NCBI GenBank assembly: GCA_951406725.2 | Contig: OX597834.1 | Location: forward strand, 20,956,001 to 21,020,000 | Reading direction: 5' to 3' | From: Octopus vulgaris | Taxonomy: Eukaryota | DNA: 64,000 bases | Part shown: one piece after another, positions 3,581 through 55,932 of the stretch | How positions within the stretch are numbered: position 1 is the first letter of the stretch | How the letters are laid out: every line of letters starts with the position of its first letter | Translations under genes and position numbers: made by a program | The notes under the pieces: model-generated | What the model saw: the letters and a program-made list of their open reading frames with translations, nothing else | Told to the model about the DNA's origin: nothing | Database searches by the model: none

Positions 3581-5358
3581 TTGGTGTTGCATGCGTTGTT
3601 AATCCTAGATATATAAATAAGATCAGACAGTCGTGCTTGGAATGTCTTTGAATATAGTCACTTAAGAATTGCTTGAAGTTAAATATTATCTAAGGGCCTT
3701 CATACAATGGCTGAAGAGGCCTTGTCTAGGTTGGAAACAGAATAGCTGTCTACACACATTCTTTCTACACTATTTCCCCCACCCCACAGTTCCTCACCGA
3801 GTTTTTCTTTTCTTGCAACTCCTGCACAAAAGATGCATTTCTATTTATGTATGTTTTTCACATTTTTTTTCCAATCTGCTCCAGACATTGAAGCCAAAAC
3901 CAAAACAAACCCACAACCCCCATCTCACCCAAACGCTTCAACCATCTTTATATATATATATGCACACATACACATTCACATATATATAGATAAATATATA
4001 TTTACATATATGAATATACATATTTATATATAAATATATATATATGTATATAGATAGATATATATAAATGCATAATACATATATATATATATATACATAC
4101 ACATACACATATATATATGTATATATATAAATATATATTTACATATATGAATATACATATTTATATATAAATATATATATATATGTACATAGATATATAT
4201 AAATGTATAATACATATTTATATATATATATATATATATGTATATAGAAAGATAGATATAAATATATACATACATATAAATATATATATATATAATATAT
4301 ATATATATATATCAACTTCTATTGTTGTTAATCAAAGTTTTATCTGACAAACTGATAATTCCAGCCCTGTCCCACCGACCGACCAACCAACCACCCAACC
4401 AACCAACCAACCAAACCTACCAACCACCGCTCCTTCCCTGTTCCCACCAGTCCTCCTCTCCCCATCTTCCCCTATATCCCACCATTCCAATCTCCCAATA
4501 CCCACCTACCCCCCGCTACTCTGCTTCACCCACCCACCCCACCTCTTTCCACCAACATCCACCCCTTTCCACCACCACCACCACCATGACCACCACCACC
4601 ACCACGACCACCCAAATCAACCCACCCCCCTCACCATTCCATTAACCACCACAGCCCCCCAACTACCACCACCCACCATCCACACTCACAAACCCAATTA
4701 ATGTAATTTGTTTACATAACAGCCTGTTTTATCTTTTAATTTAGTCATTAACCATTAATACTGTTTGTTTTCATTTGCCAATCCATCATATAATGTTTGT
4801 AGTGATAAGAGAAGAGGCCAAACCATTCGGTTTCCCTCTTTTAGTTTTTTCCTCTTTCCTTCCTTTTGTTGGCATTGGTTTTTTTTTTTGGCTTTTTGTT
4901 GGTTTTTCTTTTTTTTTGTTTGTTTTTGGTTTTTTTAGCCTAGGGCTCAGGGTAAATTGTCTCAAAATATGGTTAATTTTGTGGTTCGGATGACTTTCCT
5001 AAGGGCCAGTTCTTATCGTTTCTACCCCATTGCCACTGCATCAACCACGGATACCGATACGTACCTCAAAGAAACAGAAAGACAGACACAGATAGAGAGA
5101 TAGATGGACACACCGACAGATACATGGATGGATAGAGGGAGAGGGAGATATACAGGCAGAAAGATATATGGCCAGATAGACAGATAGGGGGAGAGATGGA
5201 GAGAGTGACAGACAGACAGATCTGCTGACAGATAGATGGGTACAGAGACAGACAGATACATGGACAGATAGAGTGAGAGACAAACAGACAGATATACTGA
5301 CAGACAGACAGAGAAACACATACACAGACAGACAGTGAGATAAATAGACAGACAGATA

Positions 5359-10890: not shown

Positions 10891-11272
10891 TTAATATTTC
10901 ATTTTTGTATTCGGTTTGCAAGATTCTTTATGTGAATTCGTGTATTGAAGCATATTTTGTGTCTGGAGAGAGTCATTCTCTTTTAGTGCCTTATTGTTTA
11001 ATGTACTCACCAGTTCAATTTCCACTCATTTAATTATTTAATTTTTTCTAAAACTTTCGTTGTCTCTTGCAATATTTTCCATAGTCATTGACTCTGTCTG
11101 TTATGTTTATTTGTTTGTGTGTGTACATCAGTGTGCATGTGTATACATATGTGTGTGTGTGTGTGTGTTTGTGTATTTGTGTACCTCTGTCTCCTTGTGT
11201 GTGCATGTTTGAGCGTTTTAATAGATTCTTCCTTATTTTAGAAAATAAATAGAAACAGAAGAAGTATATATT

Positions 11273-21074: not shown

Positions 21075-22053
21075 TCGGAATAAGGAAGTGTAAGGAAAGA
21101 AATACAATAAAAAGAACATACACAATAAAAAAAAATATCATACACAGACACACACATGAATAAAAAAAAAACAAAAAAAAAAACAAATAAGAAACAATAA
21201 ACAAGTAAACAAAAAATAAAAAAAAGCCCGGGTGATGAAGAATGGAGGTAAAAGTTATTTATGTGTAGAAGAGGTGGAGTGAAAAAGGAGAAGAAAGAGA
21301 GAAAGGCAATAAGGAAATCCCCCCTCACCCCCACGCCGGAGCTGAGGAGGAGGAGGAAAAGGAAGGAAAGTTTACTAATGAGCTAACTTATATGACAAGA
21401 TTCTTGTATGTCTTGGTGTCCTCATCCTTCAAATCTCTCTCATTATAATGTTTTATTCTTCTACTGTTTACTGTCGGTGTGGGGGTGGGCGAGGATGGAT
21501 TGTCAGTCTTATAAATAATCCTGCTTTGAAATGCCAACAAGACACGACGCCCCTCTCCAAGCCAGCAAAGGTGCTTCTATGTGGTCGTCTGAATTGCTAA
21601 AAATAGCAGCTAAATTATATGCTCCCACCCAGCCATGCACCCACTACCTCTATAACCATATTACTCTTACCATTTTCATTTATTCATTTATTTGTGTTTT
21701 GATGGGTGTTGGAGACGTTTTGGCACAGCTTTTGGGTGCCACCTCTTTGACATGGCTGACACAACACCAGCTTACTTGACATCAAACATTTCAATGTTTC
21801 TCTGCTTTTCTCTCTTCTCTATCTTTGTCTCTCTCTCTCTTCTTCCCTTTCTCCTCTCCCAGTCTGTATCTATCTATCTATCTATCCATATATATATATA
21901 TATATATATATATTACAGAGATGTACTTGCATAGCAAGTAATTTGATCTGAGATCGTGTGCTGAAACAAAAACAATTGCAGCGTGGAAGGTGTTTGTAAG
22001 CCATTTAAGAAACACACAAAAGCCGTTCGATTCACTTTAACATTTAAGTTTAA

Positions 22054-22104
22054 TTTGTCAAAATATTTTCGTCACTTTAAGACCGCGACCTGTTCACTGA
22101 CAAA
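22054..22104 (-). ncRNA. Variant minimal hammerhead ribozyme (G3:C8 core), left arm
   Basis: UUUGUCA-GUGAACA-G-GUCGC ggucuuaaa GUGAC-GAA-AAUAUU-U-UGACAAA. Confidence 0.65.
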
Positions 22105-22126
22105 AACGAGAAATGCAGTACGGATT

Positions 22127-22177
22127 TTTGTCAGTGAACAGGTTGCGGTCTTAAAGCGACGAAAATATTTTGACAAA
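22127..22177 (+). ncRNA. Variant minimal hammerhead ribozyme (G3:C8 core), right arm
   Basis: UUUGUCA-GUGAACA-G-GUUGC ggucuuaaa GCGAC-GAA-AAUAUU-U-UGACAAA. Confidence 0.65.
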
Positions 22178-22218
22178 TTAAACTTAAATGTTGAAGTGAA
22201 TCGAACGGCTTTTCTGTG

Positions 22219-22260
<42 letters not shown>

Positions 22261-22655: not shown

Positions 22656-23484
22656 CTTTGTCACTTTAACCAATACAAAATAGTAAAATACACACACACA
22701 TCCATACGCACGTATACATACGCACACACACACGTATACACACATATACATACACACACACACACGCACACATATGTTGACTAACGATTAATTCTGAGAC
22801 TGTAGCCTGATGACTGACAGTGTTGTAAAAACTACTGCAAAAACATGGTTTTAAGTTCCACTCTGTAGAAATGGATATGGACATGTCTTGAAACCCGGCA
22901 CCAAGACCTGATTGGCAATTATGGTAACTAAAACAGTATCATATATCATAGCACGGGAGGTAGAATCGGATTATCTTTTGGTTAAGAAAATCCCTCAAAA
23001 ATAAGCAAAGCAATATCCTTTTGTTTAGTTCAGGTTCTCAACTTAGCTACTCTGCTGTAAATAGTCAGTTTTGGTTAAAATATATTTCGAGTTTTGCAAA
23101 AACACAAGACTATCATTGAAGATCTTCTTAAAGTTTGTGTAACTTGTTTCAACAGCTGCTCATTAGATAATCAATAATGGGATTAGTATTAGGGATTTAA
23201 AAGATAATTACAAATAAAGAACGTATCTTCCGTTTCATCTACTTGTAATGGTTTGTTTTACGTCTGTTCTTCCATGCTAAGCATGGGTTAGAGGAAAAGC
23301 TGCTATTGAGGAATTGCTTGAAGCTGGATGCTCTTCCTGTTGCTAACCCTTACCTGTTTTCCAGGTAAGGTGTCTCTTAGGGAAAGTGACAACAATGCCA
23401 TTGTTTGTAGGGATTTCTGAGAAACAAAAGTGATAAATAAACTTCAGCACATACAAACACACGCACATATATATTATATACATA

Positions 23485-23896
23485 GGCGTAAGAGTAGCTG
23501 TGTGGTAAGTAGCTTGCTTACCAACCACATGGTTCCGGGTTCAGTCCTACTGCGCGGCACCTTGGGCAAGTGTCTTCTACTATAGCCTCGGGCTGACCTA
23601 AGCCTTATGAGTGGATTTGGTAGATGGAAATTGAAAGAAGCCCGTCGTATATATATATGTATATATATATATATATGTATGTATATGTGTGTGAGTTTGT
23701 GTGCCTGTGTTTGTCCCTCCAACATTGCTTGACAACCGATGGTGGTGTGTTTACGTCCCCGTCACTTAGCAGTTCGGCAAAAGAGACCGATAGAATAAGT
23801 ACTAGGCTTACAAAGAATAAGTCCCGGGGTCGATTTGCTCAATTAAAGGCGGTGCTCCAACATGGCCACAGTCAAATGACTGAAACATGTAAAAGA
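23485..23896 (+). mobile_element. SINE family A, full length
   Basis: High similarity to 5359-5757. Confidence 0.92.
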
Positions 23897-24245
23897 TGTA
23901 TATGTGTGGGGGAATAGGCAACAGTTTTTTTTTTCAATTACTAACTACCATAATTCATTCACAAATGCTTTCAAGAGCCTGATGTGTTAAGTGGAAGACA
24001 CTTGTTCAAAGAGCGGCACATTGGGATTGAACTTACGAGCATGTGATTACAAAATGAACTTCTAAACCACATGAGCATTCTTGCACTTTCAATAAACAAA
24101 TGTATGACACTGCATGTACGACAGTGAGGTTTGTTTACAATTAACAAGTGATATGAGGACAAGGAAATGGAAACAAATTGACTCCAGGACATATTTTTGT
24201 TAAGCCTTGTATAAACTCCATCAGTCTCTTTTGCTGAACCACAAA

Positions 24246-24603
24246 GTGCTGGAGCACCGCCTTTAGTCAAGCAAATCGACCCCAGGACCCATTCTTTGTA
24301 AGCCTAGTACTTATTCTATCGGTCTCCTTTGCCGAACTGCTAAGTTACAGGAACGTAAACACACCAGCATTGGTTGTCAAGCAATGCTGGGGGAACAAAC
24401 ACAGACACACAAACATATACACACACATATACATATATATATATATATATATATACGATTGGCTTCTTTCAGTTTCCGTCTACCAAATCCACTCATAAGG
24501 CTTTGGTTGGCCCGAGGCTATAGTAGAAGACACGCAATAGGACTGAACCCAGAACCATGTGGATGGTAAGCAAGCTACTTACCACACAGCTACTCCTACG
24601 CCT
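24246..24603 (-). mobile_element. SINE family A, near full length, inverted relative to 23485-23896
   Basis: Reverse-complement homology. Confidence 0.9.
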
Positions 24604-25306
24604 ATGTATATAATATATGTATATATATATGTGTGTGTGTGTATAAACACACACACATACATATATACATACAAACACACGTGTATATACATACTTACGT
24701 TTACATAAATGTGGTCCAACAAATGGTGGCATGGAAGGTGGACATTTGAAGATGTCGATCTGTCTGTCTGTCTTTCTGTCTGCCTGCAAATGAATGTTGG
24801 CATGGGAGATTAGGAGAATTCTACCTAATGGTACCAATTGAAGTGGGGTCAATGTCTGAGAGGGAATCAGATCAGTAAGTGAAAAACCCGGTGCCGTACA
24901 CTCAACCTTTACCTCTTCTCTTCGAGAGGTCAAGAAATAACAGAATAAACATAAAGGAGGAAACTATAAAGCTATGTTTATTCAAACTTACTAAAAGAGA
25001 TGGCATTATTTCCTCTCTCACTCCACACACACACACACACACACATACACATGCATATGCATAGACAGAGTCGGAGGCACACATTCTTTGATAAAGACAT
25101 ACATCTCTCAACATTCTCTCTTCAACTCCTTGCCATATTCTTTCTGGAGGCACCAATGTTAATTGGACAATTACCTCGCTAAACGAGATGTAAAATGTAG
25201 CTTTTTTTGTTTTGTTTTATCTTTGTACACACACACATCTATGTATGTATGTATGTATGCATGTATCTATGTATCTATCTATATCTATCTGTCTCTCTAC
25301 CTATCA

Positions 25307-55300: not shown

Positions 55301-55667
55301 CCTATCTATCTATCTATCTATCTTATCTATCTGTCTGTCTATCTATCCTTCTATCTATCTATCTATCAGTCTATCTATCCTTCTATCAATCTATCTATTT
55401 ATTTATCTGTCTATCGATCTATTTATCTTTCTATCTATGACTCTCTGCCTACCTATCAATCAATAAATCTATGCTTATGATACTTGAACAGGCATATTTA
55501 TAAAATACACATGCCTGTTCAAGTACCTTAAAAGCATGAAACTATTGGTAGCTCTTTTGGTCATATATTTAAATTGATATATATATATATATCGTTTCTA
55601 TTATGTTAAACTGTCATATGTCCAAATTTGCATAATACCAATGATATATATATACACACATATATAA

Positions 55668-55803
55668 ACAATTGCAGCGTGGAAGGTGTTTATAAGCCAT
55701 TTAAGAAACATACAAAAACTGTTAGATTCACTCCAACATTTAAATTTAATTTGTCAAAATGTTTTTGTCACTCTTAAACCGCAACCTGTTCACTGACAAA
55801 ATT
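55668..55803 (-). mobile_element. Single-arm copy of the 21914-22223 family next to (TA)n; hammerhead G12 lost
   Basis: acaattgcagcgtggaaggtgttt...accgcaacctgttcactgacaaa. Confidence 0.85.
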
Positions 55804-55932
55804 CTATGCTGCCATCTTAAGAAACCATCACTGATTGTTAGAGGAACATCATTTTCAACAATGGCCTTTTCTCTTTATATGTGTATGTCTGCTTATCATG
55901 TGTACACACACACACACATACAAATACACCCG

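Follow-up and report, generated by a model that had tools for sequence, protein, structure and literature searches.

Hammerhead positions are numbered by an established convention, and the C3:G8 tertiary pair is established by crystallography and by engineered swaps. Among described systems, the closest to the ribozymes analysed here are the minimal type I hammerheads in the pLTRs of metazoan Penelope-like elements (PLEs), for which a natural U3-A8 variant has been described (Cervera and de la Pena 2014, PMC4209133; Perreault 2011, PMC3088659). In the portions of PMC4209133 covered, these share with ours the pLTR site, an extra base between positions 9 and 10.1, a G10.1-C11.1 pair and a short palindromic stem III; U17 is common in the alignment there and opposite-strand pairs are reported. 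They differ in the core, which is G3:C8 in our family whereas the published rows begin with CUGA or UUGA only, in the extra base, which is G here and H in the consensus there, and in stem I, which is longer here (7 bp).

The same base swap has been made in the ribozyme of the anole Poseidon element (PAc), where the engineered C3G/G8C hammerhead was partly active (Frangieh 2024, PMC11167929). According to the sections of that paper covered, the PAc protein, modelled as a dimer, both nicks and extends the two strands, and its two RT start sites define the tail, as we propose for our family. In contrast to the mutant, the swap is natural here and fixed in more than 8,000 arms. In our family the ATG is found about 57 nt past the cut site, whereas that of PAc lies within the ribozyme, and the tail measures about 57 nt compared with 30-40 nt. 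The start sites of PAc are given without a strand difference, and inverted pairs are not discussed in those sections.

As a whole, the element resembles the EN+ PLEs of the Neptune clade as described in the parts covered of Arkhipova 2013 (PMC3846280) and Craig 2021 (PMC8557442), which combine an RT, and at the C terminus a GIY-YIG domain, with a CX2-5CxxC linker, inverted pLTRs (an inverted 5'-truncated copy), a tail at one end, a target duplication and a (TA)n bias. Non-LTR retrozymes, in the excerpts covered (PMC7229834; bioRxiv 10.64898/2026.07.22.740005), are likewise short, non-coding, PLE-derived and equipped with a type I hammerhead. Unlike them, our family shows no arrays of tandem 170-400 nt monomers each carrying a hammerhead, and its short copies are stubs with variable junctions rather than a self-propagating unit.

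Two hammerheads on opposite strands of the window

The window, i.e. the whole stretch of DNA analysed, comprises 64 kb of the Octopus vulgaris genome (GCA_951406725.2, contig OX597834.1, 20,956,001-21,020,000, forward strand), and the coordinates below are positions within it. We assigned the following features:

21913..22223, no strand: whole insertion, two pLTR arms of a Penelope-like element joined head to head in an (AT)n/(CT)n target; 90 inverted pairs elsewhere share the architecture
22127..22177, plus strand: minimal type I hammerhead, G3 22134 : C8 22139, predicted cut 22170/22171
22054..22104, minus strand: second minimal type I hammerhead, G3 22097 : C8 22092, predicted cut 22061/22060
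22107..22126, no strand: inversion junction, mostly the ~20-nt leader preceding stem I; the leader start, the inferred RNA 5' end, is where the 5' ends of arms accumulate
22005..22053, minus strand: linker from hammerhead to ORF start, left arm
21973..22004, minus strand: ORF start (ATG 22004) as far as the 'short' 3' end, which is one of the inferred RT initiation sites; locus L108 continues the frame into the element protein, and 3' ends cluster at +119..+129 from G3
21913..21972, minus strand: ~57-nt tail that adds more ORF codons and runs to the second of the inferred RT initiation sites; a cluster of 3' ends starts at +177..+180, and in 87 of 90 pairs a single arm has the tail
22178..22223, plus strand: right-arm linker, broken off a few bases before its own ATG by (CT)n(AT)n
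55666..55817, minus strand: second arm of the same family, solo and tail-less, with G3:C8 but G12A, about 90% identical

The initial annotation had described an inverted 99-bp pair, and the arms at 22008-22106 and 22125-22223 (99 nt each) are indeed 96% complementary across an 18-nt spacer, with mismatches at 4 positions, 2 of them within stem II. The insertion is larger than had been noted, since the left arm continues to 21913 through the ORF start and the ~57-nt tail and ends with the first ~30 codons of the element protein (minus strand); the right arm is terminated at 22223 by the microsatellite. Elsewhere in the window there is a 55-nt piece of a sister family with a C3:G8 core (10906-10960), and further abundant inverted and direct repeats of SINE-like units lie around the element (23448-24639).

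On the plus strand, stem I is formed by 22127-22133 and 22171-22177, and the core GUGAACA (22134-22140, with G3 at 22134 and C8 at 22139) is followed by an extra G (22141), stem II (22142-22146/22156-22160), GAA (22161-22163), AAUAUU (22164-22169) and U17 (22170). The mirror copy on the minus strand parses identically, with G3 at 22097, so that the earlier claim of a complete type I hammerhead in each arm agrees with our parse base for base on both strands. Scanning the 64-kb window with four types of 3:8 core returned two matches only, the paired arms. Stems I and II form the minimum-energy fold of each monomer, with z scores of only -1.40 and -1.59, and an Rfam search of the feature gave no hammerhead match, only hairpin and miRNA models below the cut-offs. 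As the folding z is not significant and no Rfam hammerhead matches, the case against a chance resemblance rests on family-level covariation.

The core of the feature is GUGAACA and not the literal CUGANGA. Its 3:8 pair is Watson-Crick (G:C here, C:G in homologous families), and U4 G5 A6, A9, G12 A13 A14, A15.1:U16.1 and H17 are in place; core and stems are undamaged in 100 of 135 full-length arms. Stems I and II covary, with double changes at 10.4:11.4 in stem II and 2.3:1.3 in stem I that come from few independent lineages. The extra base after A9, G10.1:C11.1 and the short palindromic stem III are likewise found, with A15.2:U16.2 in place of the G:C of the sister families. Judged by its sequence, the feature would work as a minimal PLE hammerhead, departing from the literal consensus but conforming to the structural one.

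A read-through transcript of both arms is computed to fold into a hairpin of -152 kcal/mol. In this predicted fold both ribozymes are masked, as had been suspected from the arm-arm complementarity, and the ribozymes of the window copy are therefore probably masked by arm-arm pairing. Nor can the inverted pair provide a dimer: there is one ribozyme per strand, and with the ribozymes on opposite strands the arms cannot form a hammerhead dimer. Modelled separately, the hammerhead dimer reaches -22.8 kcal/mol compared with -27.9 kcal/mol for the minimum-energy dimer.

A Penelope-like family and the exchange at the 3:8 pair

A search of the Octopus genome (2.8 Gb) yielded 2,049 candidates, of which 40 were scored. 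Exact genome matches numbered 845 for leader plus core, 7,892 for a downstream 32-nt motif and 8,351 for an N3-C8 core pattern, compared with 0-1 for reversed-pattern controls. Of the first 100 listed matches to the N3-C8 pattern, 99 are G3:C8, and more than 8,000 genomic arms carry this core; 128 of 137 arms that were not anchored on the ribozyme are also G3/C8. Assembled contigs from coded organisms A, B and C have a GUGAAC-type core at loose ends. The initial annotation had proposed a repeat family with a covaried core that CUGANGA-type models miss, and the thousands of copies together with the absence of an Rfam hammerhead match bear this out.

Upstream of the ribozyme, longer copies contain a microsatellite- and repeat-rich UTR of ~1 kb and then a GIY-YIG domain (Pfam PF01541, E 2.1e-5). 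In a protein search, in which the best 150 of 7,830 candidates were scored, we found open frames of up to 1025 codons that have RT motifs, a C-x3-C-x2-C linker and a CCHH pattern. At L108, pLTR, ATG and tail run continuously into the element ORF, and the ribozyme lies in the pLTR about 92-94 nt before the ATG. Pfam gave no match for two long element proteins and a PDB profile search gave one RT match (E 1.6e-4); the parent ORF would thus be identified as an RT by its motifs and this one profile match. Its best-matching protein relative is an Octopus vulgaris protein encoded in the same genome.

The single ORF with RT and C-terminal GIY-YIG, the two cysteines that lie between GIY and YIG, followed by histidines further downstream (read from translations; CCHH is the definition given for EN+ PLEs in the part of PMC8557442 covered), the direct or inverted pLTRs (tandem in L108, inverted in most long copies), the one-sided tail and the target duplication all agree with an EN+ PLE. 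The linker has the CX2-5CxxC form of Neptune, although the same paper reports a zinc-finger-like linker for Nematis too. The parent is likely a Neptune-type PLE, judging by the linker motif and (TA)n targeting only. The PLE context with inverted pLTRs and the link to RT/GIY-YIG ORFs that had been anticipated for this locus are supported by the longer copies, L108 and PF01541. Ten older or divergent protein-anchored loci gave nothing informative beyond family A.

With either C or G permitted at positions 3 and 8, the genome gave 9,106 matches, the first 100 listed being 94 G3:C8, 5 C3:G8, 1 G3-G8 and 0 C3-C8. The rows with C3:G8 come from older sister families (450 exact matches; 30 loci viewed in each of two sets), which share the stem I core, the extra G, the stem II ends, the linker and the ORF start. 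Downstream of the ribozyme they are 60-64% identical in 5 of 5 copies compared, and the N-terminal ORF of our family is 39% identical to that of a young sister family (E 5e-29). In an alignment of 15 rows, 3:8 is paired in all (9 C:G, 6 G:C) and stem II in every cell, with A:U/G:C exchanges at 10.4:11.4 and at 15.2:16.2 in stem III and a U:A/C:G change in stem I of the young family; the outer part of stem I is poorly paired in the sister families (67% of cells). The rows were chosen from intact parses and represent about four lineages, so that the 3:8 swap counts as one event and the shuffle control is inflated by relatedness. By our own estimate, the odds of two core changes landing on partner positions with pairing are roughly 1 in 200. 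Because stems II and III also change in compensatory pairs, we read the change from C3:G8 to G3:C8 as real natural covariation of the tertiary 3-8 pair, and the earlier claim that the swap keeps this pair is supported by the C3:G8 homologues. A metagenomic PLE (L247, 29% identity) has the same layout with C3:G8, which makes G3:C8 the derived state. It was the only one of 26 metagenome loci scanned with a convincing paired-core hammerhead, most of these contigs ending too early, and two weak matches inside or antisense to the ORF of L244 were discounted.

Several further hammerheads were seen along the way. A very young sister PLE (L211-L240; L216:58-64 and 4646-4652, plus strand), with copies 99% identical, has intact frames of 1310-1312 codons with a long Asn-rich insert, C3:G8 and a C at position 9 (CUGAUGC), a further non-canonical core. 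In a C3:G8 sister subfamily with C17 (L320, L323, L344, L348, L350) the first base pair of stem I is mismatched, which hints that constraint at the cut-site junction is relaxed. Such changes show that the clade tolerates damage in the core or the closing pair. An unrelated pLTR family of the same genome contains a head-to-head pair of another hammerhead with a U3:A8 core and the palindromic stem III ACGCGU (L194:4130-4410), and canonical CUGAAGA type I hammerheads occur in other repeat families (L200:1682-1750, plus strand; L223, plus strand, two copies).

Conservation and the 5' ends of the arms

Within the family, at the subfamily level, a second allele of at least 10% was found at none of the 42 core or stem positions, compared with 10 of 101 flanking positions and 5 of 9 in loop II (Fisher p 0.027). 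The initial annotation had read the two G-U wobbles in stem II as preserved pairing, but they are C-to-T changes at CpG sites. Stem II and its immediate flanks contain four CpGs, at which 169 arms chosen without anchoring on the ribozyme have 29 C-to-T and 21 G-to-A changes, the latter breaking pairs or hitting loop II or G12; we therefore attribute the wobbles to CpG decay and reject them as evidence for selection.

A class with a mismatched G3-G8 pair has 280 exact matches in the genome. Viewing 30 loci showed 2 copies of sister families, the rest being mostly members of the older subfamily. There, G3-G8 makes up 105 of 3,441 old-loop arms (3.1%) against a neutral C/G transversion rate of 0.64% (12/1,865), about five-fold over neutral expectation (L389-L448), and G8 sometimes occurs on both arms. 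The age of G3-G8 copies does not measurably exceed that of old G3:C8 copies (0.056 vs 0.048, p 0.79), and they have no linked marker in common. The excess and its occurrence on both arms suggest that a broken 3:8 pair may have transposed; the class could represent an intermediate, back-mutation or arm-to-arm conversion.

To locate 5' ends, we compared arms anchored downstream of the ribozyme with 7 natural references; once 3 overlapping loci and 6 with the same flanks had been removed, 98 independent arms remained. Of these, 42 start in a window of 11 nt at the leader, about 22 nt ahead of G3; 4 start upstream of this window, 33 downstream of it but before the cut site, and 16 past the cut site. 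There is no excess at the predicted cut site (3 of 98 within 3 nt, about background), and 79 arms span it. As most arms start at the leader or otherwise upstream of the cut, the templates were mostly uncleaved, as also reported for the anole PLE (PMC11167929, in part). The base before the leader boundary is G in 22 of 48 arms where the genomic base is C or T, which hints at a reverse-transcribed cap, with some of these Gs explained by microhomology. Upstream of the ribozyme, L034-L049 have a branch-point-like ACUAAC, a pyrimidine tract and a CAG ending exactly where most short arms start, a spot that resembles a splice acceptor, an initiator or both. Contigs from runs guessed to be RNA showed neither a GT..AG joint nor an end pile-up, but assembled contigs cannot show RNA ends.

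Origin of the inverted pairs and competing explanations

The 3' ends of the arms are bimodal, at about +119..+129 and from +177..+180 relative to G3. Among 69 downstream-anchored loci there are 31 head-to-head pairs within 700 bp and 38 loci without a partner there, and all 31 pairs combine one tailed with one short arm. The same holds for 87 of 90 pairs over all sets (the window's own insertion not being counted), with 3 ambiguous and none with two tails or two short ends. When 88 pairs were tested for their target, 61 lay in (AT)n, and 20 of the remaining 27 share a target word of 11-14 bp (mode 12). Arms vary in length from about 50 nt to over 4 kb. At least two subfamily-diagnostic differences separate the arms in 10 of 90 pairs (at least three in 7), compared with 62% of random pairs.

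From this we infer that both target strands serve as primers, with cDNA started at two fixed sites and, in at least some cases, copied from two pLTR templates. In such a mechanism, the element RNA would begin about 20 nt before stem I, and the RT/EN protein, probably as a dimer, would nick both target strands about 12 bp apart. Each nick would prime a cDNA on uncleaved RNA, one at the tail site and the other at the short site about 57 nt upstream, and both cDNAs would extend toward the RNA 5' end and be joined there, leaving an inverted pair of which one arm is tailed, together with a ~12-bp duplication. Formation of a stub would not require cleavage, and the ribozyme would instead act in tandem or full-length source elements, releasing the ORF-bearing RNA from a read-through transcript.

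A different origin of the inversion, proposed for rotifer PLEs (PMC3846280, in the part covered), is self-priming, in which one cDNA folds back and the second arm copies the first. The short palindromes at the head-to-head junctions would fit such a model, as would the arms that are identical (17 of 90 pairs) or without diagnostic difference (66 of 90), and gene conversion could produce the discordance of the others. Against it, the tail-less arm ends at a fixed second site and not at random, in 10 of 90 pairs the two arms come from different subfamily haplotypes, L012 and L055 among them, where discordant arms lie inside a single target duplication, and with the anole protein both strands are nicked and then extended, starting at two sites (PMC11167929, in the sections covered). 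The strict pairing of a tailed with a short arm and the mixed-subfamily arms favour both-strand priming over the published model, and we regard self-priming as improbable. Still less plausible is that the palindrome was copied whole as a non-autonomous unit such as a MITE, a fold-back element or a retrozyme. Seven loci (L137, L165, L166, L168, L169, L174, L188) do have an identical junction, but their flanks are identical as well, which points to one stub amplified inside a larger repeat; otherwise junctions differ copy by copy, arms vary widely in length and continue into the RT/EN ORF, and tandem monomer arrays are not seen.

It could be that the G3:C8 hammerhead no longer cleaves usefully and that its fold is retained for structure or protein binding, or is a relic of recent date that has been carried along. 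The missing footprint at the cut site, the G3-G8 class that looks mobile, and the A9C change of the young active sister family and the mismatched first stem I pair of another sister would all agree with this, as would the report that anole PLE ribozyme mutants insert unimpaired in vitro, with no reads ending at the cut site (PMC11167929, in part). On the other hand, formation of the 3:8 pair is limited to the catalytically competent fold according to the part of PMC3884650 covered, and it is hard to see without selection on the fold how two transversions restored the pair while the other ten core positions stayed fixed over about 38% flanking divergence. We consider such a loss of cleavage unlikely, and it is reasonably probable, from comparison of these sequences, that the G3:C8 hammerhead is catalytically active. 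That the resemblance to a hammerhead is due to chance, as the modest folding scores and the Rfam result might have suggested, is refuted by the canonical hammerheads of the sister families, which are homologous in position and sequence and show compensatory changes.

Overall, the feature is likely a dead-end head-to-head insertion of two pLTR arms of an EN+ PLE, probably of the Neptune type, in which the family-wide G3:C8 core would preserve slow, dimer- or protein-assisted self-cleavage. A more far-reaching reading is tentative: a natural active G3:C8 hammerhead may have been fixed in thousands of copies, with the passage from C3:G8 through a transposing G3-G8 intermediate to G3:C8 kept in one genome, and with inverted ends arising by asymmetric both-strand priming that uses a pair of RNA templates and two fixed start sites.

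Among surveys of PLE hammerhead variants, that of Lunse 2017 is reportedly the largest. A natural G3:C8 core was not found in the literature covered, only laboratory mutants (PMC11167929, PMC3884650, in part); this covers the portions of the papers cited and of PMC6155905, PMC6765202, PMC5680766, PMC6962438 and PMC10085705, exclusive of figures and of Lunse 2017, Hammann 2012, Arkhipova 2017, Martick and Scott 2006 and Przybilski and Hammann 2007. A search for twin-priming likewise found no PLE paper using the term. Within this literature, natural variation of the pair is U3:A8 only, and the natural G3:C8 core would be new. The stub itself is an ordinary kind of PLE insertion; the core variant is unusual and well supported.

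We believe that a natural G3:C8 family beside close C3:G8 relatives provides evolutionary evidence for selection on the catalytically competent fold in PLE hammerheads, which bears on the role of the weak ribozymes of these elements, and that the two sisters form a matched natural pair for assay. On a practical matter, searches based on CUGANGA overlook whole high-copy families. Furthermore, the rule of one tailed and one short arm, together with arms from mixed templates, makes the origin of PLE inverted ends directly testable.
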